From positions 213,280,001-213,344,000 of the forward strand of contig OX597814.1 in assembly GCA_951406725.2 (NCBI GenBank): DNA of 64,000 nucleotides, given 5' to 3'. Below, piece by piece: positions 14,396 to 64,000 of the stretch. The stretch is from Octopus vulgaris. Taxonomy: Eukaryota. The notes under the pieces are model-generated. The model did not search any database. It had not been told where the DNA came from and saw only the letters and a program-made list of their open reading frames with translations. Each line of letters begins with the position of its first letter. The first letter of the stretch is position 1. Both the position numbers and the translations under genes were made by a program.

Positions 14396-15378
14396 AGAAA
14401 TGAAGTACTCCCAGAAATGCACGGACTGAAGAAACCACCTGAACCAAGAGTACCATTTGATTTGAGCGACATTAAACGGAAAGAAATGGATGAGTTCATA
14501 AGGAAAGCAAGAACAAAAAGTGCACCAAGGAACGATGGAGTGAGCTACAAGATATACAAATATTGCCCAAAATTACGATTGCAGCTGTTTGCACTGATAA
14601 GAGAAATGTGGAAGAAGAAAGATGTAGCGGAGCGATGGTGAATAGCCGAAGGTATCTATCTACCTAAAGAAAAAGAGGCAAAAGTACTAGGCCAATTTAG
14701 ACCGATTTCACTACTAAATACAGACGGGAAAATCATGTTCGGAATAATTGCTAGACGAATCATAAGATTCGTACAGCATAACGGATACGTTAATGAAGCG
14801 ATTCAAAAAGCAGGAATCCCCGGAATCCCTGGGTGCATAGAACACGCATTTTCCATCGGGGAAGCCATCACCTGTGCAAAACAAATGAAGAAAAACCTAT
14901 ATATTGTTTGGCTAGATCTTGCCAATGCTTATGGATCTGTTCCGCACGCAATAATAAAAACAGCGATGGACCTCTTTTGGATTCCAAAAGATGTTCAACG
15001 AATGCTCGTGTCGTACTACGACAACCTGAGGATGGGATTTACAGCAGGAAAGTTCACCTCGGAGTGACAACGGCTTGAAATAGGTATTGCAGCCGGATGC
15101 CCAATATCAGTCATCTTATTCGTGCTAGTCATGGAAATGCTACTCAGATCTACAAACTGTGAGAAAGCTGTTACAAAGACACCATTAAGGGCTTTTATGG
15201 ACGACGTAACTATATTATCAGAAAATAGAGAAGCAGTTAGAGCGGTTGGGGGAACTGATAGGATGGGCAAGGATGAAATTCAAAGCCCAAAAATTTCGAA
15301 GCGTGGCTTTCGTGAAAGGAAGGCAAGAAGTGAAATTCAGGATAGGAAGTGAAGACATACCAACGGTGAAAGAATAAT
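14396..15378 (+). pseudogene. Reverse transcriptase fragment of a non-LTR retrotransposon (Hero/NeSL-like)
   Basis: Motifs FRPISLLN, QKAGIPGIPGCIEH, WLDLANAYGSVPH, GIAAGCPISVILF and FMDDV; in-frame TGA stops at about 14639 and 15065 and a frameshift near 15245. Clade assigned from memory of motifs. Confidence 0.9.
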
Positions 15379-48495: not shown

Positions 48496-49748
48496 CGAGG
48501 GGCGTTCAATAAGTAATGCCCCTGACCCACTTCCCATAGCAGTAGAGCAACGACACTTGGCACAGTTATTAGTCTTTTCCTACATAGGAACTACCCAAAG
48601 TTATGCATTTCTCCCATCGTTTGATACAGCTCTAGATACCGTTTTTGTAGAAGACCCCAGCTTGGTCCTCCAACCACGAGGTGACTTCAGAAATCAAGGC
48701 TGCATCATCTGGGAAACGCTTTCCTTTCAAAATCAACTTCATGGCTGGGAAGAGGTGAAAATCAGAGGGTGCAAGGGGAAGAGTTCATAGCTGCACGCCT
48801 GTGCGTCTGATCTGGCGACACGCGAGTTGTGGACCGGAGCGTTGCCCTGCAGGAGGAGGATGCCTTTGCTGATCTTGCCCCGCCTCTTGATTTTGATAGC
48901 TTCTCTTAATTTCCTCAAAAGTGAAGCATAATAGGCTCCTGTAATTGTGGTACCCTTTGCCAGGAAATCTGTCATCACTACTCCGTCCTGGTCCCAGAAG
49001 ACTGTGAGCATAACCTTGTCAGCGGAGGGCTGCACCCTTGCCTTCTTTGGAGGAGGTGAGTCACGGTGCTTTCACTGCATTTCCTGGGCTTTGGTCTATG
49101 GATCATAGTGATGCACCCAGGTTTTATCCTGTGTGATCAGTCTCATCTTCTTGGCACATCTCCAAATTCATCCTCGAGCACTCAACGCGTTCTTGCTTCT
49201 GGAAAGGTGTGAGCAGCCTGGAAATCCATCTGGCAGACACCTTTTGCATATGCAAATGGTCATGAATGATAGTTTCCACAGACCCGGTATTAATCTTGAC
49301 CTTATGGGCTATTTGGCGAATAGTTATGCGTTGACCTTCCAAAATGGCAGCCTCAACTTGACGGACAGGCGTCTCATCAACGGCAGAAGGGGGCGACCAG
49401 ATCTGGGAGCTGTTTCCACAGAGTTCCGACTATGTTTGAATTCACAATGCCAGCGTTTTACAAGGTCATATGATGGGGCATCATCACCATAAGTTACTTT
49501 CATTTCATCAAAAGTCTCCCGTGGTGTGCGTCCTTTCAAATACAAAAGCCAGATCACTGCTCGACACTCAACAGGCTCCATTTCACATTTGACTCAGTTC
49601 AAACACCTGTAAATCAGAAACCACAATTAGTTCAGAGCTGTAATTCACCACTTAATCTATAGAGGTATAAATAAGTGCACATGCAAAATTTCAGCTAGAT
49701 CAAACAACTGCCAGTGGGTCAGGGGCATTACTTATTGAACGCCCCTCG
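48496..49748 (-). mobile_element. Full-length mariner transposon with frameshifted transposase
   Basis: Perfect 36-bp TIRs cgaggggcgttcaataagtaatgcccctgacccact and TA TSD; transposase pieces MEPVECRAVI, VSARWISRLL, KVMLTVFWD and LLLQGNAPVH. Confidence 0.97.
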
Positions 49749-51185: not shown

Positions 51186-51259
51186 TCATGACCTTTCGTG
51201 ACCTTTATGGTTTCATAAATTTGGTTTCATAAATTTGCTTTTCGAAATTTGAATTCCGT

Positions 51260-52810
51260 GTGACTTCATTGAACCCTTTGCAACAACCATTTTTGAAACT
51301 TTTTGGAAGCAATTATTTAATTAACTTTTTAATTAGATAAACTTTTTAATTAAATTAAATATATAGTGGTGTCTATACCCTTTACCCACCACTCGCAGTC
51401 CATATTTTCCGCATACTTCTGTAATCTCCGTACGTACTCCGTGTCTGCCAACACGTAAATAGCGTTCTCGGACAGACCCTTCACTCCCGTTATATCTACC
51501 TTTACTGCTCCGTCCTACGAGTCCAATTCATCGCACAGTTCTTCATTATGCCCATTATACATTATGACATATTTTTCTTTACAGGGCGGAGGTGGGTAAT
51601 TTTGTGGCTCTTGTGTGTTAGTACATATTTTCTATGTCAGACAGGGCATGAGGAGGATTGGTGTCTGTAGGGAGTGGTTGCGGTAAAGTGGCTGTGGGTA
51701 GGGGCCGGGTTGGTATGGGTTGGAGGTCATCCTTTACCACATGTGTCTGCCTCCTTTTTTTTTCTTCTTCCCTGCTATCTCCCAGTTGGTGCTTGTCTCC
51801 TCCTCTTCGATGGTGGTACTCTGTAACACCATATATCTTTTTCCTCCACGGACGGTGGATCATCTACCAATTTCTCATTCTCCTTAGCCTTTTCTGGTGG
51901 TAGAGGGCACTCCGCTCTAATGTCGCCTGAAAGGCCACATTTACAGCATCTCGGAATTCTTCCCCCGACTCTAACTTTCAACGTTCTGTCTCTTACTGTG
52001 ATGTTCTCTATCATCTTTTGTATATCTTCCTCCGCCACTTGTACCAACATATCAAGTGTTTCTACCCGCCAGTTCCTATGCGGTTTTCTGGTAGCCTGTA
52101 GGCCCACCACCTTCTCCTCCATACCTAGCAGTATGGCAGCCACCAGCCAGGCTACATTGACCTCCAGGGTTATTTCCTCTACCCTAACCCTGGAAGGTAA
52201 AGGGGCAGAAGAAATACTTCATTAGTTTTCAGCGGTGTTGCTGATTGCAGCCTCGCGATAGCTACCCCCAAAATGGCACCTCCACCGTTCCAAATTTTCT
52301 ACTTCTGGCAAGGTAGGTAATTCTTTGCCCGGTTTGAGCGCCTTTTCCACCTGAACTGTTGACATAATTTCAATCTTTCCGGCTGCTATCGAAAATGTTC
52401 TATAAATGATGATTTTCTCGATTTCTTTTCTTTTCACACTTATTTGGGGTGAAAAGGGAACATCTTCACGTCGTTCCTCTCCCTTTTAAGTATTTCCTTG
52501 AACTTGCTCAGCCCTTTCAGGTTTGTTTGATCAATTTCTTCTTCCCTCACCCCCGCTGCATAATTCTTCTTTTCAATAACCTTATTGACTAATTCCGACG
52601 GCGACGACATATGCTCCGAGGAAGGGCAGCCCTCAACACTCCAGATAGAACAATTCAATTCTTCGCAACTTCTTGTTCGACGTCCCTCCATCACAAGAAG
52701 AAAAACGTCGCCAAAAAAGAAAAAAAAATCACGCACAGCCAAAAAACACGTCTATTTCGTAGAAATACAACAAACCGAATGAACTCTGGATAACCGGAAG
52801 CAAGCTTCTT
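51260..52810 (-). mobile_element. Zinc-knuckle (gag/ORF1-like) element, copy 1
   Basis: GRIPRCCKCGLSGDIRAEC; collinear with copy 2, sharing the start aagaagcttgcttcc.gtta.ccagagttcatt. Confidence 0.75.
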
Positions 52811-52934
52811 TAGTTTATGAAATTGGTCATAAAGGTCTTACATAGAGGGGGCAGCACAAGGTGAGGACAAGAAAAAATGAATGGAAATGAAATTATGCAA
52901 TGAAAGATGAAATTGAATCGCTCGGCCCCACCTC

Positions 52935-54320
52935 CGGTTGACTTCATTGATCCCTTGCAACTCCCTTACTCCTGTTGTGTCCACTTTAATTGCAGTATAC
53001 CATGTTTCTATTTCTTCATATAGTTCTTCAATAAGCCTGTTGTATAATAGAATGTATTTTCTTTCTCAGGGCAAGGTGGGGGGCTTTGGGGCTCCTGTGT
53101 TTTTATGTTTGTCTTCGTGTTAGTCGGAGTGTGGAGAGTGTTGGTGTCCGCAGGGAGTGGTCGGGGTAGTGTGTGTGTGGGTGAGGGCTGGGTGGGTGTG
53201 GGTTGGGGGTCATTTTTACCCATGTGTGACTTTTTCTCCTCTTCCTGCTTTTTTTCTCCACCATTTCCCACCTGGTATTTCATTCTTCCTTCTCGATACT
53301 GGTGCCTGTCTTCTTCTGTGGCTCCTCCTCGTTACTTACTTCTTCCTCCATGGCCTGTAGAGAACTTACCACTCTTTTGCCCTCCTCAGCCTTTTCCAGT
53401 GCTGAAGGGTATTCATGCTCTAATGTGGCCCATCAGGCCACATTTATAACATCGTAGAATTCTTCCAGCCACTCTAACTTTCAAAGTCGTTTCACCCACT
53501 AAGATGGTTTCTACCGTCTTTTCTAGGTCCTCCTCCGTGACTTGCACCAACCATCATTTCCAGGCTTTGACCACTCCAATTCCTTTTGGGTATTCTGATG
53601 GCCTGCAGGGCCATCAACTTCTCCTCCATCCCCAGCTGCACGGCAGTCACCAGCCAGGTTACATTTACTTCCGGTGGTATGTCCTCTACTCGAACCATGG
53701 TAGTCCGTCTCCCAAGGTACACGGATAGCAGTACAACCTCATTTATTTTCAACGGTGTAGCCGAGTACAGTTTAGCTGTTGCTATCTAATTAAACTACAC
53801 CTCCACCGTTCCATATTTTCGACTTCTGGCCAGGTAAGATATCTCTTGTCAGACTGGCCTTAACACCTTTTCCACTTGTGCTCCCGACACCACTTCTATC
53901 TTCCTTGTTGTCACCGCATACGTTCTGTAGACGATTGTTCACTCTACCGTATCTTTTAACAGATCTTTGTGAGGTGGGGGGAACCTTCATATTGTCCATC
54001 TCCCTTTCAAGCATTTCCTTGAACTTGCTTAACTCCTCCAGACTTACGTCTTCAATTCTTCCCGTTGCCACTGCTGCGTAATTGTTAGTGTCCATTTGCT
54101 TGTCAATCTTCTCCAAACACTTTGCCAAGTCCTCCTCAGACGCGACTCAAATTCTGAATAAGACTTATACATTTTTCACAACTCTTCACACGACGCCTCT
54201 CCATCACACAAAAGGAAAAACTTTGCACAGCCAAAAAAATCCGCACAGCAAAAAAAAGGTCTACTTCGTACAAATAAAACAAACCAAATGAACTCTGGCT
54301 AACTGGAAGCAAGCTTCTTA
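52935..54320 (-). mobile_element. Zinc-knuckle (gag/ORF1-like) element, copy 2
   Basis: RCYKCGLMGHIRA*; NYAA, LSKFKE.L.RE and LGMEEK motifs shared with copy 1. Confidence 0.75.
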
Positions 54321-54719
54321 ACACACAGTCACGACTGACATATGTATGTGAAAGTGTGTATGTGCATAGGGGTACACTGCCTATTGTTTTGTATATCTTT
54401 GTATAATATTTCAATAATTTCATATTAAAATTTACTGGACTCCTTTGAATTATTTGATTATTATTTTACTATGGAGCTATGATGTCTTCGAGAGGTGAGT
54501 TGGCGGCGCTTCATTAACTTGCTATGGAATCTTCTTTTATTCTTTGAAATAAAATCTGCTGTCAAAACGTTCTTGATTATTGAAGAGCAGAAGTTTTTAA
54601 ATGATGCTGCGGTCAATTTTCTTTAATTCAGGTACACATCTCTGTTTGATATACGAATCTCATTACTAATGGCGTCTTGCTAACGCTTGTTATGGAAATG
54701 GTGCTGCGTGTAACATATC

Positions 54720-55320
<601 letters not shown>

Positions 55321-56252
55321 CGTTTATATTGATACATAGATATATAAATATTTGCAAAATTGTTGTTACTATTCGGTCCACAGAATATTAATTTCTTGTT
55401 TATGTCATTTCATATGTCATCGATATTTTTCCGTCTAGAGAATATCAGATTATATTTAATTCAATGAATAAATATGATGCTTGAAAGGTAATTTCGTTTG
55501 TTTGCTTCTTCATTTTAAATTTCTTTCAACACGTGGTTTGAGTAATATAAGTTACACATTACACAATCCATGCATGTGTTCACGCTGTCATATCGTATTT
55601 CCAGAAAAGTTAGAGTGATTGCTTCGTGGCAGTTCGAACCAACCCCGAATGAAAAACAGTTAATTACAAGAATGAAACATCCTCCAATACTGATATCCTG
55701 TTAATGAAAGATATTCAGATAGCTTGAATAAAAGAAGACAGCTGTGCTGATTGCATTTATTTAGGCAGAAACACGTATCAACATTTGCCGCTTGACTCCT
55801 GATAATTAAGCTCTCTCTAAAAGCACAAGGATTTGGCAGAAAAATGTTCTAAGTAATGCAAGCTGAAATCCAGAAGCAATGTATCAGGTAGTTAGGGGTA
55901 AATGCTGGTGGCGACGGCACACTATATATGTCACAATTTCCGTTCTTGTGTATATGAATTGCTCTACGGGTTATAAACAAAGGCTGATAGCTGCAGGTAA
56001 AAGAGTTAATAAATTCGGATATTAAATGCCGAAGCACAGCAGGTTCTTTACTCCTCTACAGTAAGTCATTTGAGAGAGCAGTCTTGTCAAAAGTTTTCTC
56101 CAGCTTTCGCAGATTGTTTAAAAGTTATCTATAACATAAAGTGCTCTCAACATATAAACAGATAGAATTACAAAGTACAAGATAAAAAGATAAAAATAAA
56201 TTATTCCATACATTTTCCCTAGAACAGGTGAAGTAATAACACCTAATGTACG

Positions 56253-56289
<37 letters not shown>

Positions 56290-56580
56290 CTTTATAAGTG
56301 CTAATCAGGTAGGGTTAGTGTTAGGGCTAAAGTTCGGGACAGTTAATGACTATGGCATGAAAAATAGTACTACAATGACTTTTTCCTGTCAATCTGGTTA
56401 ATCGTACTTTTAGAATTATTTTAAGGCATCATTATTTCCATTACCTAAGTTTTGCAAGAATTGTATACCTCATTGTTATGCCGTGAGAAACTCCCATATT
56501 TTGAAGTCAGGACCAAGATATGAAAACAATAGTGTGAGAATTTCTTATTACCTTTTACTAATATTCACAGTTTAGAAGAA

Positions 56581-56588
56581 TATATAAA
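56581..56588 (+). promoter_or_regulatory. Candidate TATA box (TATATAAA)
   Basis: Starts 64 bp upstream of the ATG at 56645. An alternative reading is a splice acceptor at 56570 (ctaatattcacag). The motif is weak evidence in AT-rich DNA. Confidence 0.35.
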
Positions 56589-56644
56589 TGCTTATCATTG
56601 CATATGGAATTGTATCTGGAATCGAGAAGAGAGCAAGGAACATC

Positions 56645-56738
56645 ATGTCCAAAATTCTAATCGTCATCGCATCTGCTCTACTTGCTGTCATTAGATCAGT
56701 AACTGCCTTGCACCCGCCATTTGTTCCTCACACAACTT
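56645..56738 (+). CDS. Candidate first coding exon of a secreted protein (signal peptide)
   Basis: aacatcATG context; MSKILIVIASALLAVIRSVTA|LHPPFVPHTT has a basic N-region, hydrophobic core and V-x-A cleavage site; followed by a GTAAGA phase-1 donor. An in-frame upstream ATG lies at 56588. Confidence 0.65.
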
Positions 56739-57149
56739 GTAAGAAGTTTTTACAATTTCATTTATAATTTTATGTTCTTCCTTTACGTACGTAAAACTAT
56801 AAAAATATGCTTTCTGTGAATTTAAAGGAAATTATACATAAGTGTCATTTGGAAAGTAAGGTAAGACGAATACATTTTTTTTTCTTTTGCAACTTCAAGT
56901 CGCTGGCGCTTTATTGCGAGAGGAAAAATAAGATAAAAATGCAACTGAATCGAAATATCTCGTCTGAAATGTCATATGAATACATATTCACAAAATATAA
57001 ATATAGGCTAGAAACAATATTGCTCACAAAACTGGTAACAACTTCATATTTTATCATTGTTCTCATATTTCACATATAAAAGTACTGCTAACTGGAACGT
57101 TCTTACTAAATGACTAACACTGTAAACTGATCAGAGAATTTGGATTACA

Positions 57150-57800
57150 CAATCGAACTAAACCTTAATCCCCTAGATTCCCCCACTTTACCCTAAAACA
57201 CCATAGACGAAATTTCTCTATGAAAACATTCATTAGGCTTCTTTACTCAAGGAAATTAGGTCTGAGTCGAATTAGAAATTACCTTAAAGACGGCTTATCC
57301 CCATGGTAAAAAAATAACGTTATACTTTCATTTAGAAGAGTCTTGGCGTCACCCACTCCCTTTCTAAAAAATCGAATACATCTTCCAATTAAACACTTTT
57401 AATTATTTAGTCTCCATATTCTCCATTCTATTAAATAACGCTTAATTTCCGCAAGAAAATTTGTGCCCCCATTCTCGGTCGGACGTCGACATCTTAACAG
57501 CTAAATAACACTCCAGTCTTTTCAAAACACATACTGGTTACGAAATTCCAGCATCAACTACTTTAGGGCCCCTATGTGTTCCCCGAACGCTGACTAAGTC
57601 ACTGATAAATCTCTTTCTTCTATTACAAATAAATTAGCACTTTCTCTGCCTTTCTGGGGTATTTATACAGGTATGATTATCTTCTTGTAGACGAGAGGAC
57701 ATCGACTGAACGTATCCGAAAAAGATCTTTACAAGTTCTTTAAAACTTGAAAATAGTACTAGAGAATCAAACTTCTTGGATGTGACTTTCGACTTAGTTT
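57150..57800 (+). pseudogene. Second degraded PLE RT fragment
   Basis: FTLKHHRRNF, FQNTYWLRNS..YF, YLYRYD, ERIRKR, YKFFK and NFLDVTFDL; parallels 22880-23330. Confidence 0.7.
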
Positions 57801-57801
57801 C

Positions 57802-57963
57802 CGGTGGTGTATATTTCGTTTGTCACTGTTATTTATGACAACCCTAACCCTAAAAACTTAAGCCTAACCCTAATACCCTAACCCTAAGACCTTAAAGCTA
57901 AAACCAGTAGAAACGCACGAAAGATGTCATAAATAACAGTGACAAACGAAAGATGTACCGCCG
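57802..57963. mobile_element. Small TIR element with internal telomere-like (CCCTAA) repeats
   Basis: Perfect 27-bp IR tttcgtttgtcactgttatttatgaca (57814-57840 / 57925-57951) around accctaaccctaa...ccctaaccctaa. Confidence 0.85.
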
Positions 57964-58126
57964 ATAGTTGTTGTTGACAAACAACGGCAGTAATTTTATT
58001 CAGCTGAATACACGTCATTGATTGGTTGAAATTACTGAAATAGGACAACTTTAACATGAAATAACTTCGTAAATATAAGTTTTTCTCAAAAATGCTAAGA
58101 GTAAAAGATGTTTTATATGACGCATT

Positions 58127-58206
58127 CTACCAGTGTCCGAAGTTTGAAAGTGTTTAGTTACAAAAAATTATTTTTTTAAATCTGTCGGTCAAAAGGTAAA
58201 GATCCG
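58127..58206 (-). mobile_element. DNA-transposon-like end; inverted homolog at 59906-59983
   Basis: cggatcttt.cc.tttga.cg.cagat...ttttttgtaactaa.cactttcaa.cttcggacactggtag. Confidence 0.75.
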
Positions 58207-58610
58207 AAAATCCCTCTTGTTCGTTCAGTTCAAGTAATTTTCAGAAGTTGATTAACTTGAGTATAAACTCTTACGATTAACTAATATTATATAATGATTA
58301 TATAGATAAAATAAAGCTGCAGCTGAGTTTAAACAAGATTAAGTATGATGAAACAAATGGCAGGTAACATAAAGATTATCACTGAACTCGGATTAGAAAA
58401 ATCCTATCAGAAAGAAATATCGGATTGTTTGTTAACAGAAATGTTTGAATGGAGCTTGACAGAAGATAAAAACCTAACAGAAACCTTAGTAAAATATACG
58501 TATTAAAAACCAGGAATACGACGGAAATATTTATCCCCAAGTACACTTACATATAATACTAAAAAGAAAAGAGATTGCTATTGCTTTCGTTTCTTTTCTT
58601 TTCCTCATAG

Positions 58611-58639
58611 ACTACAGCACACAAAGGCGTTTTCGTTAA
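58611..58639 (+). CDS. Candidate terminal coding exon (Y)YSTQRRFR*
   Basis: Strong polypyrimidine acceptor ttgctttcgtttcttttcttttcctcatag; joining it to the 56738 donor gives a 40-aa ORF. The join is unverified. Confidence 0.35.
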
Positions 58640-58992
58640 GAATAGGGAAAAAAAATCTTTTTTTTTTTCTTTTGCTACGCAAATGCAATATAGTTTGAAG
58701 CTGAGTCGGCATAGATCTATTATTGCACCAGATCTATTATTATGCTTGAACAATTACCAGAATGTAGAAGCGATGACTTAGCTTTGTTTCATATATCACT
58801 AGTTGATAAAAATCAAAAGATGCAGTAACGTTATAGCAATGGTAAATTTAGATTGCCAAGAATCACTAAGAAACTACACGACTACGTTGAAGTTGTTCGA
58901 AAAAAATCATTATAGCGTTGGGCTAATTATTCCACCTGAAAACTGACAACGCAACGTTTTCTTTAATGACACGTTGTAAGACAGCGAACAAA

Positions 58993-59387
58993 TCTTTATA
59001 TATAAAAGTGAAGTTGTGTGTCTGTCTCCTACGATTTAGATTCCTAACAACTCCCACATTTTGCGGTGCAGTTTAACCAAAACCGGGTATCTTATAGTCG
59101 TGATTCATATCGAGCACTTCTGGGTATTAGCGCGCGTCTACGATGAGTCTACGATTTTAAAAATAATTGACCATCATTGTTTTTCATTTTGATGCATTTT
59201 TTCGCTATTATATAAGGGAAGTAACTCTCTAAAAATGTCTACGATGAGTCAACGATTTAAAAAAAATTACCATCATTTCTTTTCCATTTTTAATGCATTT
59301 TTTTGCTATTTTTGGCTATAACTCTCTAAAAATGCTTATATAGTTATTTCCCTTACAAACCCGAGCAACGCCGAGCGATACTGCTAG
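58993..59387 (+). mobile_element. Non-autonomous Helitron
   Basis: a|TCtttatatataaaa 5' end; 3' cccgagcaacgccgagc hairpin-like motif then CTAG|t; inserted at A|T with no TSD; internal tandem modules. Confidence 0.88.
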
Positions 59388-59984
59388 TTATATCTATTTT
59401 GAACTGTTGCGTTAGTTAAAATGCAAAATTGTTTCCAGTTTGTCATTGGATACGCCACTAATAACGAACTTACCCGAGGAGGATAATTTTGTAATGAGAG
59501 TAAATCAAGTGACGCGCACATGTCTTACTATAATAAACTAGCATGTCTGAATATAACATACATTTTATATTAATATAACCTACTAGCATATCTTAATATA
59601 ACATACTAGTATGTTATATTAAAAGTTGAAGAACGTTGTAGTGTGTATATTAACGTACTATATTATAGTATGTTATATTAAGATGCACCTGCAGCTAAAG
59701 AGACAACAAAAGCCTCGAATCTTATTATATGCAAATGTGAGAGCTGCTTTCAGCCCTTGAACATGTGAGACGAAAAAATGTTACGACGCTAATCGGTAAT
59801 ATTTCCATATATTGCTGACTATTATCAACCCATAAATTTATTATTTGCTTTATTGCAACGCATGAACTGGGAAAAGACTATTCTTCCATCGGTACGCTGG
59901 AAAAGCGGATCTTTTCCCTTTGAACGGCAGATCGAGAAATGAATTTTTTGTAACTAAGCACTTTCAATCTTCGGACACTGGTAG

Positions 59985-60420
59985 TGCAGCGTTGTATTGC
60001 TTAATTTTGTTTTGGAAGTGCTTGGAATCTTGGTCAATTGATGACAAAAGTCCCTTTAATGACACTGGAGGTTAGGGGATTGCTGGGAGTTTAACCTTTC
60101 CACCACTGCAGGTGTCTTTCCAGGCCACTTTCTTGATTTACTATGTATGCACTCAGTTGTCCCTAAACCAATGGAATCTCTAGTACCATCTGCATAATGA
60201 ACTGCTGGATCATAATTGAAAGCTGCTTCATAGAAGTTGCTTCTCCGAGCAGTTGCAACTGCTCTTCGTTATGTAGTGGAGTTCCTAGTTCTTGTCAGCA
60301 GTGCATACCTTTGTTAATCACTTTGAGATACTCTGGCTTTTGTAGTGCACACTCTGTTCGTTTCTTGGCGTGCTTACCTTTCTGCAGCTGTCTCTCTTTC
60401 CCTGGACAGAGATATTCTTT
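59985..60420 (-). pseudogene. Helitron Rep/helicase N-terminal fragment
   Basis: Minus strand AAFNYDPAVHY...TECIHSKSRKWPG...CSGGKVKLP...PP..LKGLL...SKHFQNKIKQYNAA, resembling the RepHel zinc-finger region. Confidence 0.8.
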
Positions 60421-61459
60421 TGGCTGACCTTGACATTGTAGATAAATTTGACACTTACCTTGTAGGCATGGTTATATACGTATACAGAAATACACGGTTG
60501 CAGAAGAAAGTAAACAATGAAAATAACTTGGTAACGGAAATTATGTATCCTAATACGACGGGCAGAATGTAAATAAGAATAAATGAGAAATTTTTACAGA
60601 AAATAAAGAATTGTACGGGCTGAAGCGAAATTTGTCGCTCAGAGAACGAAAGAGCCAGTATGGAAGAAACGAGAAAAAAGCCGTCAACAACAGAAAAGCA
60701 CAAAACCGTTGCAAAAGTAAATAAGAAACGTGGAAGCGGTTCAACCGTTAGTCATGGTGTTCGTAAACCGTCCAAGTCTCAGAGGCTTTCATATAGCAAT
60801 GCTGCGCCCGTTGCTCGCCTCAAGTTGACATCAGCAAAACAGAGGTCCGTTGGAGTGGTCAGTATCCAAAAGAGTTCTCACGTTCCAAGTTCTAAGGTCA
60901 CATTCGCTTTGGCTGTAAGATTTCAGCTGTTTCCAGATTTAGTGCTACGACTACAGGAAAGGTGGCCTGCCGAGTGTGGCTATCCGTTCAAGTACTGAAA
61001 GTAACTTCCGATGTTTAGCCCTCCTTTTATCGGACCTTCCCCCATTGAGGTGAGCAGAGGTAGTTCAGAAACTCCTGCTCAAACATAAGTGTTTGACTGG
61101 ATCCCAATTAGTCACTGGATCTTGGGAAGGCAGCTGTCACACACTAGCTGCCAACCTGTAAGTCTGGACAAGGAGCTCCCGGTTTCACCTAAACCTGCTC
61201 TGTTATCTTTATCTTATCGCTATTGGACTTTATGAATCTTAGTTTAAGCATGAAAAAGAGAAGCAGGATATTAAAACGAGCAGTAAAATGAATAAGTGGT
61301 GTGGGTTTGACTTGAGTGGATCACGACTTGCCAGGAGGTAACCTATGCAATATAATCTCAAGACTTAGATAGGTACGTACGTACATACATACATACATAC
61401 ATACATACATACATACATACATACATACATACATACATACATACATACATACATACATA

Positions 61460-61939
61460 CGAGTAAGGTACTGAATAGTTCCTGACTTTAAGGGTGTCAC
61501 GAAAGATCTGGTTGGAATTCCAGCCTTCCGAGTTCTTTTACAGAGCTTTGAAAAACTGAGGGACCGTCGCAACAAATGTGTGAATCTGAGAGGCAAAGAC
61601 AAAGAAAAGTTACCTTCTACAGTCAAGCCGACCCCTAAAGGCCGGTTTCCCAGTCACCATGGCGGATAAACTTCCCAAATGGCAGGGCCGCCGGACCGTC
61701 AAAGAATTACTCATTTTTGCCGGCTGAGTGAACTGGAGCAACGTGAAATGAAGAGTTTTAATCTAGAACGCAATACGTCGCCCGGTTCAGGAAGCGAAAT
61801 CACAATTTCACAGTCATGATTCCCACACCCTACACTGGCCTCCAAGAATCTGAAAGGTGAATGTGTTCAATAAAATCATAATTAAGTGATCCCACTGTAT
61901 TTTTTTACCGTAAGCCACTAACTTTTCAGTACCCCCCCC
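61460..61939 (+). mobile_element. Mariner-derived MITE interrupted by a SINE
   Basis: Imperfect TIRs ggtactgaatagtt / aacttttcagtacc; residual C-terminus [10 protein letters not shown]. Confidence 0.7.
61594..61845 (-). mobile_element. Degraded type A SINE
   Basis: atttcacgttgctccagttcactcagccggcaaaaatgagt on the minus strand; TSD gaatctgaRagg at 61582 and 61846. Confidence 0.8.
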
Positions 61940-61966
61940 ATGTGTGTGTGTGTGTGTGTGTATACA

Positions 61967-62773
61967 CACGAGGTGCTATCAAAAAGTTCGCACATTACTT
62001 CTGTAGCGTGCACACAGATGACAGCGCATTGAGCAGAGTTGTTGCGCACACAGTGAGAGGTAGCAGTGGCCCTCATTCGGTAGTGTACCGAGTGACATTG
62101 TGTTTACTTCCAAAGTTGTGAAATCATTTGTCTTTTTTTTTTGTGATCACGTGTAAGCTGTAGCCTTCGATTGTTGTCATACGCAGGAAGTTGGATCAAA
62201 GCGCCAATGTGAAATTTCGCGTTTTAAGGTTGAGCATGATTCGGCAAGCTTACGGCATCGAGGCACTGGGTCGTACGAAATGTTTCAAGTGGAAGGGGCG
62301 CTTCAAAAGCGGAAGAGCTCTCCTGGAAGACGAAAAGCGATCTGGAAGATCTTCCACAAGCGTCACTCCTGGGAATGTGATATTGTGCGTCAAGAATTTG
62401 TCCCTCGGGGCAATCAAGAGTTCTGCTTCAAAGTTTTGAAGCGTTTGAGGGAGGGCATTCGGCGAAAGCGACCGAATCTGTGGTGTTCGAAGAACTGGAT
62501 TTTCACCGAGCTCTTCTCACTAATGAGTTTCTCGCCAAAAACATGGTATCGCTTCGGCACCTGCTCTATTCGCCAGATTTAGCACCTGCGGAGTTCCGTC
62601 TTTTCTCCAAGATGAAAATGCAGTTCAAAAATTGCCGTTTTAACATCATTGTCGAGAGCCAGAGCGAGTCGCAGAAGGTCCTCGACCTACTTACGGAAAA
62701 TGTCTATTTTATGTAAGTAAGTTATTTTTTTTATCAAACATAACTAGCCCGACAACTATTTGTTACCACCTGC
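61967..62773 (+). mobile_element. Internally deleted mariner remnant
   Basis: MIRQAYG, RFKSGR..LEDEKRSGRSS, LKRLREGIRRKRP and YSPDLAPAEF. Confidence 0.9.
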
Positions 62774-63029
62774 AATATATATATATATATATATCCATGC
62801 ATAGTTTTCTGCTCATATAGACTCATCCTTTCATCTGATGATACGTTGCGGTAGAGTCGTGCGAGGTCTTTGGGCATGTATTCTAGGCTATCAGACAAAG
62901 AGTATTGCTCGAGGAGCTGCCGTACAAGTCCTATGTATGTATGTATGTATGTATGTATGTATGTATGTAGGTAGGTAGGTAGGTAGGTAGGTAGGTAGGT
63001 AAGTAGGTATGTGTGTATATATGCATGTT

Positions 63030-63075
<46 letters not shown>

Positions 63076-63140
63076 GGGAATCGAAACCGCGATCCTCTGA
63101 CCGTGAGTCCGCCCCCTAACCACTGGGACTTTGCGCCTCC
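63076..63140 (-). mobile_element. SINE type B head fragment
   Basis: Reverse complement of ggaggcgcaa...cccagtggttaggg...gtttcgattccc. Confidence 0.8.
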
Positions 63141-63311
63141 GCAGATTGCCTAGTAGAACTGATACAAAAGGATTGCCTCCTTGCCTCGGGTAGAATTATC
63201 AGGAAAGTATTGGATAGCTGAAAAGAACGAGTAGCATGGTGCCGTAGGCTGCATCTCGTAAGCCCGCTACGCATGCAGGACTCCAGGAGCTCCAACAAAA
63301 CCTGTAATGAA

Positions 63312-63399
<88 letters not shown>

Positions 63400-63404
63400 C
63401 CAAC

Positions 63405-63700
63405 ATAACGTGACACTCCCGTAAAGGGAATTACATCACCGCTATATAGCCCAAGGAAGCATCGACGCTTCCTGTGGGCTTTGACACATTTCTTGTGTCC
63501 TTATATTTGCAAGAGGGATGCAAGCATCCCCACCAGCTAGAACTAGCAACCTGCAGGCATGCATGTTTCTGGGTCTTGACCGTCGTCAGTCCAGGGTAGC
63601 GAGTCCTCGCTAGCGGTGATACTTACCAAGCCCTTGCAAAATATATCTATTTACAGGGAAATCTATTCACTGGTCACCGTAATTAGAAATATTGAATATC
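63405..63700 (+). repeat. Diverged relative of the 24277-25197 repeat unit
   Basis: Shared tagc.c.a.gaa.catcg, tgacaca...tg.gtcc.ta and attcactg.tc...aattagaaatattg in the same order. Confidence 0.55.
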
Positions 63701-64000
63701 TAAACGTCTCAACGAGGTAGGAGCGGTGGTGGAGCGATAGAGTGGTTGTATAAAATAAGGCTGTCCATCTCATTCGTTTCACGAGATCTTCAATTTTCTC
63801 GAGGAGTATCCTGAGCTATAGTTTATTCGATGGCGTAGGTATTTTCTTAATCGAGTAATCCGTGTGGTGTAAATCCAGAGTAGTGTATAGATTGGTAAAA
63901 TCTTTAGCGTCTCTCACCTTAGCGAAGCAAACACACCAATCGCGTAAAGATTATGCATTTGCATCTAGTGAACGATGAATATTATTCAGAACGTTATGAT

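Follow-up and report, generated by a model that had tools for sequence, protein, structure and literature searches.

The locus analyzed here raises the question of whether a short exon encoding a signal-peptide-like sequence, preceded by a TATA-like motif and followed by a splice donor, is the beginning of a new secreted-peptide gene or a piece of a known one. Within a 64,000-nucleotide stretch of Octopus vulgaris DNA (C1:213280001-213344000, hereafter referred to as the window), the initial annotation had joined this exon to a second one at 58611-58639, predicting a 40-aa precursor that releases a 19-aa Pro/His-rich peptide. Our results indicate that the exon is very probably the first exon, with its promoter, of an octopus galaxin-2-like gene. 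It lies in a duplicate of 14.7 kb that has no galaxin exon and likely represents a pseudogene fragment under neutral decay. Because the main galaxin exon is missing from it, this stray copy is likely to be a pseudogene fragment of an ordinary kind, as opposed to a gene for a new peptide.

The elements from which the peptide gene had been proposed are present in the window (Table 1). The TATA-like motif was found at 56581, as reported, and the exon with its phase-1 GTAAG donor was confirmed as the first exon of a galaxin gene, which spliced contigs leave at 56738. It runs from the ATG at 56645 over 31 codons plus one base to 56738. The hydropathy of its peptide peaks at 3.1 over nine residues, the hydrophobic core is kept in six of six exon-1 copies, and cleavage of the signal peptide would be expected after residue 21. 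A Pfam search with the exon 1 peptide gave no match. The NCBI galaxin-2-like models begin at another ATG, at 56588, 19 codons upstream of 56645 (window 56588-56644); if the TATA-like motif is the true promoter, this N-terminal extension is likely an annotation error.

Table 1. Features of the galaxin-derived locus. Positions are those of the window unless a C1 coordinate is given.
Feature	Position	Strand	Remarks
Dispersed duplicate of the C8 galaxin-2-like locus	51255..64000, on to C1:213345982 (2 kb beyond the window)	+	Collinear blastn blocks, 83-98% identity
TATA-like motif TATATAAA	56581..56588	+	Also present in the exon-1 copies on C8 (all five); overlapped by an in-frame ATG at 56588
Exon 1 coding part of galaxin-2-like	56645..56738	+	Predicted signal peptide (residues 1-21) and Pro-rich linker
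Phase-1 splice donor GTAAGAAG, not GTAAGT	56739..56744	+	Identical to the donor used by the parent
Intron stretch	57221..57366	+	In run X1, one contig is window-type (146 bases, no differences, depth 11.2) and another is parent-type (7 differences and 1 gap, depth 11.4)
Deletion junction	57801^57802		14,798 parent bases missing (C8:36025261-36010464), whole exon 2a included; TTC microhomology on both sides
Pyrimidine tract, AG (58609-58610), and 9-codon tail ending in RRFR-stop	58590..58639	+	Copy of C8:36009546 onward; possible cryptic exon only
High-copy repeat, ~400 bases	58990..59397		Present in the window, absent at the matching parent place

When the 2.8-Gb genome was searched with positions 56540-56800, six matches were obtained, namely the window itself and five C8 sites, all on the minus strand in the interval 36.03-36.17 Mb. 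These five paralogues are 75-97% identical to the query, with promoter and exon matched at E 1e-50 or better, a resemblance far above chance. The TATA motif, the ATG, the hydrophobic N-terminus, and the phase-1 GTAAG donor are kept in all five, and the Pro-rich linker is variable. An exon-1 fragment of 230 bases that includes TATA, ATG, and donor was observed at C8:36031390-36031616 (L003), 5 kb upstream of the parent exon; it has unrelated flanks, shows three differences from the window copy vs. seven for the parent, is present in DNA run X16, and could be an alternative first exon.

Use of the donor was followed in five of the 14 listed RNA-like runs, all of them compared as assembled contigs, which drop rare forms. 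Four RNA-like runs (X1, X2, X9, and X11) were compared on 56300-61300, and the stretch 56520-57060 was covered with four runs, including a DNA run. The RNA-like status of these runs is a guess, none being recorded as RNA; runs X1 and X11 were called RNA because of a spliced junction in their contigs. Runs X1 (study P1) and X11 (study P4) each have a single contig that ends at 56738 and passes into a loose end of at least 255 letters. This loose end is the same in both runs and matches exactly one site in the genome, galaxin exon 2a, from C8:36014024 downward. The junction contig of run X1 is 615 letters long, 42 of them from exon 1 (depth 1185), and that of run X11 is 441 letters long, 89 of them from exon 1 (depth 1338). 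Since both contigs end at 56738 and enter another exon, a donor of the 56739 type is used.

The coding part of exon 1 differs between the window and the expressed parent exon on C8 at four bases (window type: G56663, C56673, T56674, and A56695), which alter three codons, each to another residue; at residue 10, the window copy has an outgroup-like Ser and the parent a Leu. The junction contig of run X11 carries four other letters in exon 1, the same number that separates window from parent, and both listed differing letters (56663 and 56695) are of the parent type. The final 43 bases of exon 1 are alike in the two copies, so that the junction contig of run X1, which covers only the last 42 bases, cannot be assigned to either copy by exon 1 alone. 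No window-type exon-1 contig was seen in the contigs of runs X1, X11, and X4, contigs being known to drop rare forms.

In the C8 parent, exon 1 is thus joined from the same donor to the cysteine-repeat exon 2a, with removal of a 12.4-kb intron. This exon sits behind a pyrimidine tract and an AG, 12,400 bases from the parent donor, and encodes 170 residues of dicysteine repeats that match the Pfam family Galaxin_repeat PF24748 (E 7e-22; 78.1 bits vs. a cut-off of 28). Its RNA-derived start is absent from the window (0 matches at 3 mismatches). The warning in the initial annotation that exon 1 could splice to other exons was therefore justified: parent exon 1 is spliced to exon 2a in the contigs of runs X1 and X11. 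A junction to a different downstream exon, named there as evidence against the short-peptide model, was found in the case of the parent, and for the window copy the contigs show no spliced form either way.

The nearest named proteins come from Octopus sinensis. Isoforms X1 (XP_036361252.1) and X2 (XP_036361253.1) of its galaxin-2-like protein were the only two matches among 11 candidates for the 40-aa unspliced exon-1 frame, and contain the exon 1 peptide, with 90% identity across 78% of this 40-aa query. They have the same junction residue after the linker, and their C-terminal parts match two C8 exons: isoform X1 is 98% identical to exon 2a, and isoform X2 combines the same first exon with a different repeat exon, exon 2b, found on C8 at 35994991. 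In the parent, exon 2b lies 31 kb from exon 1, to which it is joined in the NCBI model of this close relative. The galaxin-2-like proteins P0001 and P0002 begin with the exon 1 peptide (90% identical), and P0001-P0003 score 73-77 bits with PF24748. Galaxin-2 of Octopus bimaculoides (XP_014786332.2) shares the hydrophobic N-terminus, an LHP..TTY linker, and dicysteine repeats, and is 55% identical to exon 2a, but is more distant, being a full-length protein with a His-rich tail. LHPPFVPHTT is the linker that precedes the cysteine repeats.

Between C8:36026518 and 35994495, a single first exon appears to be shared by two alternative last exons, which are 61% alike and both encode a whole repeat domain. 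The contigs show the junction of exon 1 to exon 2a only, the junction to exon 2b being known from the model. No exon 1 of its own was found for exon 2b in 318 kb of C8, and exon 2b was therefore read as an alternative last exon, as in the isoform X2 model.

The relation between the two loci was analyzed by blastn, in which the window, extended by 20 kb past its end, was compared with 208 kb of C8. The duplicate block is 14,728 bases long on C1 vs. 36,227 in its parent counterpart (C8:36031162 to 35994936, minus strand), and substitutions amount to 3.6-6.1% by stretch, about 4% overall. The description of this sequence as non-repetitive was incorrect in one sense: the stretch duplicates C8 DNA, and 57803-58303 is a high-copy repeat. 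As introns and flanks came along, a DNA-level event would have copied the block from C8 to C1; no target-site duplication of at least 6 bases was found at the block edges. No match to exon 2a was found in 144 kb of C1, and sequence comparison indicates that the C1 copy lost this exon through a 14.8-kb deletion, retaining the exon 2b acceptor and 55 frameshifted bases. This difference was interpreted as a deletion in the copy and not as a gain in the parent: with only 61% likeness, exons 2a and 2b are far older than the 4% divergence of the copy. The deletion would have arisen with the duplication or after it.

It could be argued that the C1 block is an assembly artefact, i.e., a misplaced or collapsed C8 haplotype, and the presence of another galaxin gene on C1, 14 kb past the block, is an odd coincidence that would fit such an explanation. 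Against it, the block differs from the parent by 4% substitutions, large indels, and a repeat insertion, and no N was found in the 144 kb of C1 that were read. Moreover, DNA run X16 has window-type contigs (records 8 and 10), parent-type contigs, and, as a third type, the exon-1 fragment of 230 bases within flanks of its own; since this run has contigs of each type, the window copy and the parent coexist outside the assembly. An artefact can thus be considered extremely unlikely. The parent alone explains a 0.24 share of the 31-mers of the stretch, and three DNA-like runs contain 0.41-0.55 of them.

The neighboring C1 galaxin (C1:213359938-213361308), unrelated to the C8 fragment, is a 456-aa galaxin-like open frame on the minus strand, which lies 14 kb past the duplicated block and faces it. 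It matches PF24748 (E 1.5e-58), contains 28 dicysteines, and has an N-terminal repeat rich in W, P, and H. Capture of exon 1 by this gene was rejected, that galaxin being on the opposite strand; among 25 genome matches to PF24748, none is on the C1 plus strand near the window. Other sequences were noted in the window. Two tandem copies of an element, 67% alike and with broken frames, occupy 51255-54916; they were copied with the block and also occur near other C8 galaxin genes, and two of their frames gave no Pfam match. Transposon remnants were found at 14642-15064 and 48742-49593 (reverse transcriptase RVT_1, E 4e-9; Transposase_1, E 4e-21; HTH_48, E 7e-8). Seven of the ten window frames scanned against Pfam had no match.

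At the right end of the block, the acceptor of exon 2b (C1:213345928) is kept and is followed by only 55 bases of the exon, with one base deleted, before a repeat begins. With exon 2a gone and exon 2b reduced to these 55 frameshifted bases, the window copy cannot encode proteins of the XP_036361252.1/XP_036361253.1 type. A transcribed pseudogene might still splice exon 1 to the 2b remnant, at the acceptor used by parent isoform X2, and yield a frameshifted product or a non-coding RNA. The authentic acceptor has been retained, the in-frame join reads six galaxin residues before it shifts (63 aa in total), and window-type intron RNA occurs in run X1; however, the 1-base deletion and the truncation leave no second dicysteine repeat, and we regard this outcome as unlikely.

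The claim of a strong acceptor at 58610 was partly correct. The pyrimidine tract and the AG are there, the site being the first and most pyrimidine-rich (18/20) of nine candidate AGs from the donor to 2.2 kb past the window end, and the joined frame of exon 1 and 58611-58639 reads the expected 40 aa, without any Cys. The use of 58611-58639 as the next exon was not confirmed: the donor-crossing contigs enter C8:36014024. The corresponding C8 site lies 4 kb past the exon 2a stop, inside the intron of parent isoform X2, with AG and tail intact. Among ten AGs with at least 16/20 pyrimidines in the 31.5-kb span of the parent, two are annotated acceptors. On the plus strand of 318 kb of C8, 784 pyrimidine-rich AGs were counted, and 211 of them give tails of 5-15 residues.

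These data bear on the possibility of a new short secreted peptide, in which exon 1 would splice, after the deletion, to 58610 and give a 40-aa precursor made of the galaxin signal peptide, the linker, and nine former-intron residues. Promoter and donor are intact, 58610 is the foremost candidate acceptor downstream, run X1 has window-type intron RNA, and an AATAAA is present at 59532. Nevertheless, both donor-crossing contigs enter the galaxin exon, the same AG and RRFR-stop lie in the parent intron and are unused by the named models, and the tail is conserved no better than the intron. A dibasic or RxxR motif, such as the one at its end, is moreover found by chance in 15 of the 211 short C8 tails. 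The RRFR tail occurs in no named relative and the linker differs freely among the C8 paralogues, so that neither the peptide nor its processing site is conserved across paralogues, as would be expected of a neuropeptide, venom, or defence peptide precursor. No protein of 22-70 residues shared three words with the 40-aa unspliced frame, which is also absent from the protein collection, a weak test for so short a peptide.

No 56738-58611 join was present among the listed contig joints of runs X1, X2, X9, and X11, with runs X1, X2, and X9 having no cover at 58304-58971; as assembled contigs drop rare forms, missing contigs of the short form were not counted as evidence. Production of the 40-aa peptide would require cryptic splicing, which appears improbable. 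A dedicated 40-aa precursor is thus unsupported: exon 1 is a galaxin-2-like first exon, LHPPFVPHTT is a linker, and the proposed exon 2 is parent intron DNA. There is likewise only a slight chance that a gene has been caught at birth, the duplication and the 14.8-kb deletion having set an intact galaxin promoter and signal-peptide exon before a cryptic intron acceptor, with a 40-aa secreted precursor releasing a 19-aa Pro/His-rich basic peptide. If true, the short spliced form would provide a clean example of how deletion and intron exonisation can give rise to a new secreted peptide.

Alternatively, the 40-aa form could be a third, short isoform of the C8 parent (exon 1 to C8:36009546), merely mirrored in the window. 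The acceptor and 9-codon tail are intact in both copies, and a contig of 236 letters from run X11 (depth 4.5) covers 58616-58858. This contig, however, begins 5 bases inside the exon, contains no letters of exon 1, and is similar in depth to other intron contigs of run X11 (5.7 and 2.7); in addition, a 29-base stretch is expected to be nearly unchanged at 4% divergence. Such an isoform seems very improbable.

No excess conservation was seen in the window copy. Seven of 174 sites differ from the parent in promoter, exon 1, and donor vs. 45 of 1050 in the intron (Fisher p 1.0), a comparison of little power with 94 coding bases and 4% divergence. By part, changes were counted at 3/74 sites in the TATA motif and 5' UTR, 4/94 in exon 1, and 1/29 in the proposed exon 2. 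This flat divergence fits neutral decay as far as so weak a test can tell. The intact TATA motif, ATG, and donor count against the pseudogene reading, as does the outgroup-like Ser that the window copy has kept at residue 10.

Transcription of the window copy was assessed from the intron. At 57221-57366, the window and parent copies differ by seven substitutions and one gap, and a contig of run X1 is window-type at all seven diagnostic sites. The possibility that this stretch is a high-copy repeat was rejected, as it has just two close copies in the genome. Because this 146-base window-type contig occurs in run X1 at the depth of the parent intron contig, the window copy may be transcribed, weakly, its depth being ~1% of that of the spliced contig of the parent, although contig depth is a poor measure. 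The contig may also stem from a converted parent allele or from DNA carry-over.

Unprocessed (duplicated) pseudogenes arise from partial segmental duplication, in which introns, promoter, and flanks are copied together and a coding exon is lost, with even divergence of exons and introns. The window holds a genomic copy, with introns and flanks, of a functional parent, and carries disabling lesions, exon 2a being deleted and exon 2b truncated and frameshifted. It departs from this class in that its promoter and donor are still intact, so that low transcription and cryptic splicing may occur. By descent, exon 1 is galaxin-2-like; by product, the window copy is without the defining dicysteine repeats. 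It would yield no functional protein, the intact promoter possibly giving a little RNA. As a pseudogene fragment it has little weight in itself, and serves as a warning that orphan signal-peptide exons mimic small-peptide genes.

As for the parent, its protein is predicted from the sequence to be secreted. In a study of squid galaxins (PMC12773714), Euprymna scolopes EsGal1-10 are described as having dicysteine tandem repeats, octopus galaxin-2 is placed as sister of EsGal-3, -6, and -10, repeat-derived peptides of EsGal1 and EsGal2 are reported as antibacterial, and a role in calcification is proposed for the galaxins of corals and molluscs. By analogy with these members of the same family, the C8 parent may encode an antimicrobial or matrix protein; according to the same study, the active squid peptides stem from the dicysteine repeats, which are absent in the window copy (PMC12773714).

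A useful by-product of this analysis is the number of octopus galaxins. The squid study speaks of two described in O. bimaculoides (PMC12773714), a number exceeded by the C8 cluster, with at least seven intact galaxin-repeat exons, together with the long C1 galaxin. The cluster (C8:35934404-36174739) contains five copies of exon 1 and seven intact repeat exons, along with a broken copy and a partial one. Five of the repeat exons are of the galaxin-2 type with nine dicysteines, the two others being located at 35948535-35949248 and 35934404-35934889, and several of the cluster galaxins carry His-rich C-terminal tails. A further PF24748 match was found at C12:9778497-9779165, in a 249-aa open frame uninterrupted by stops.
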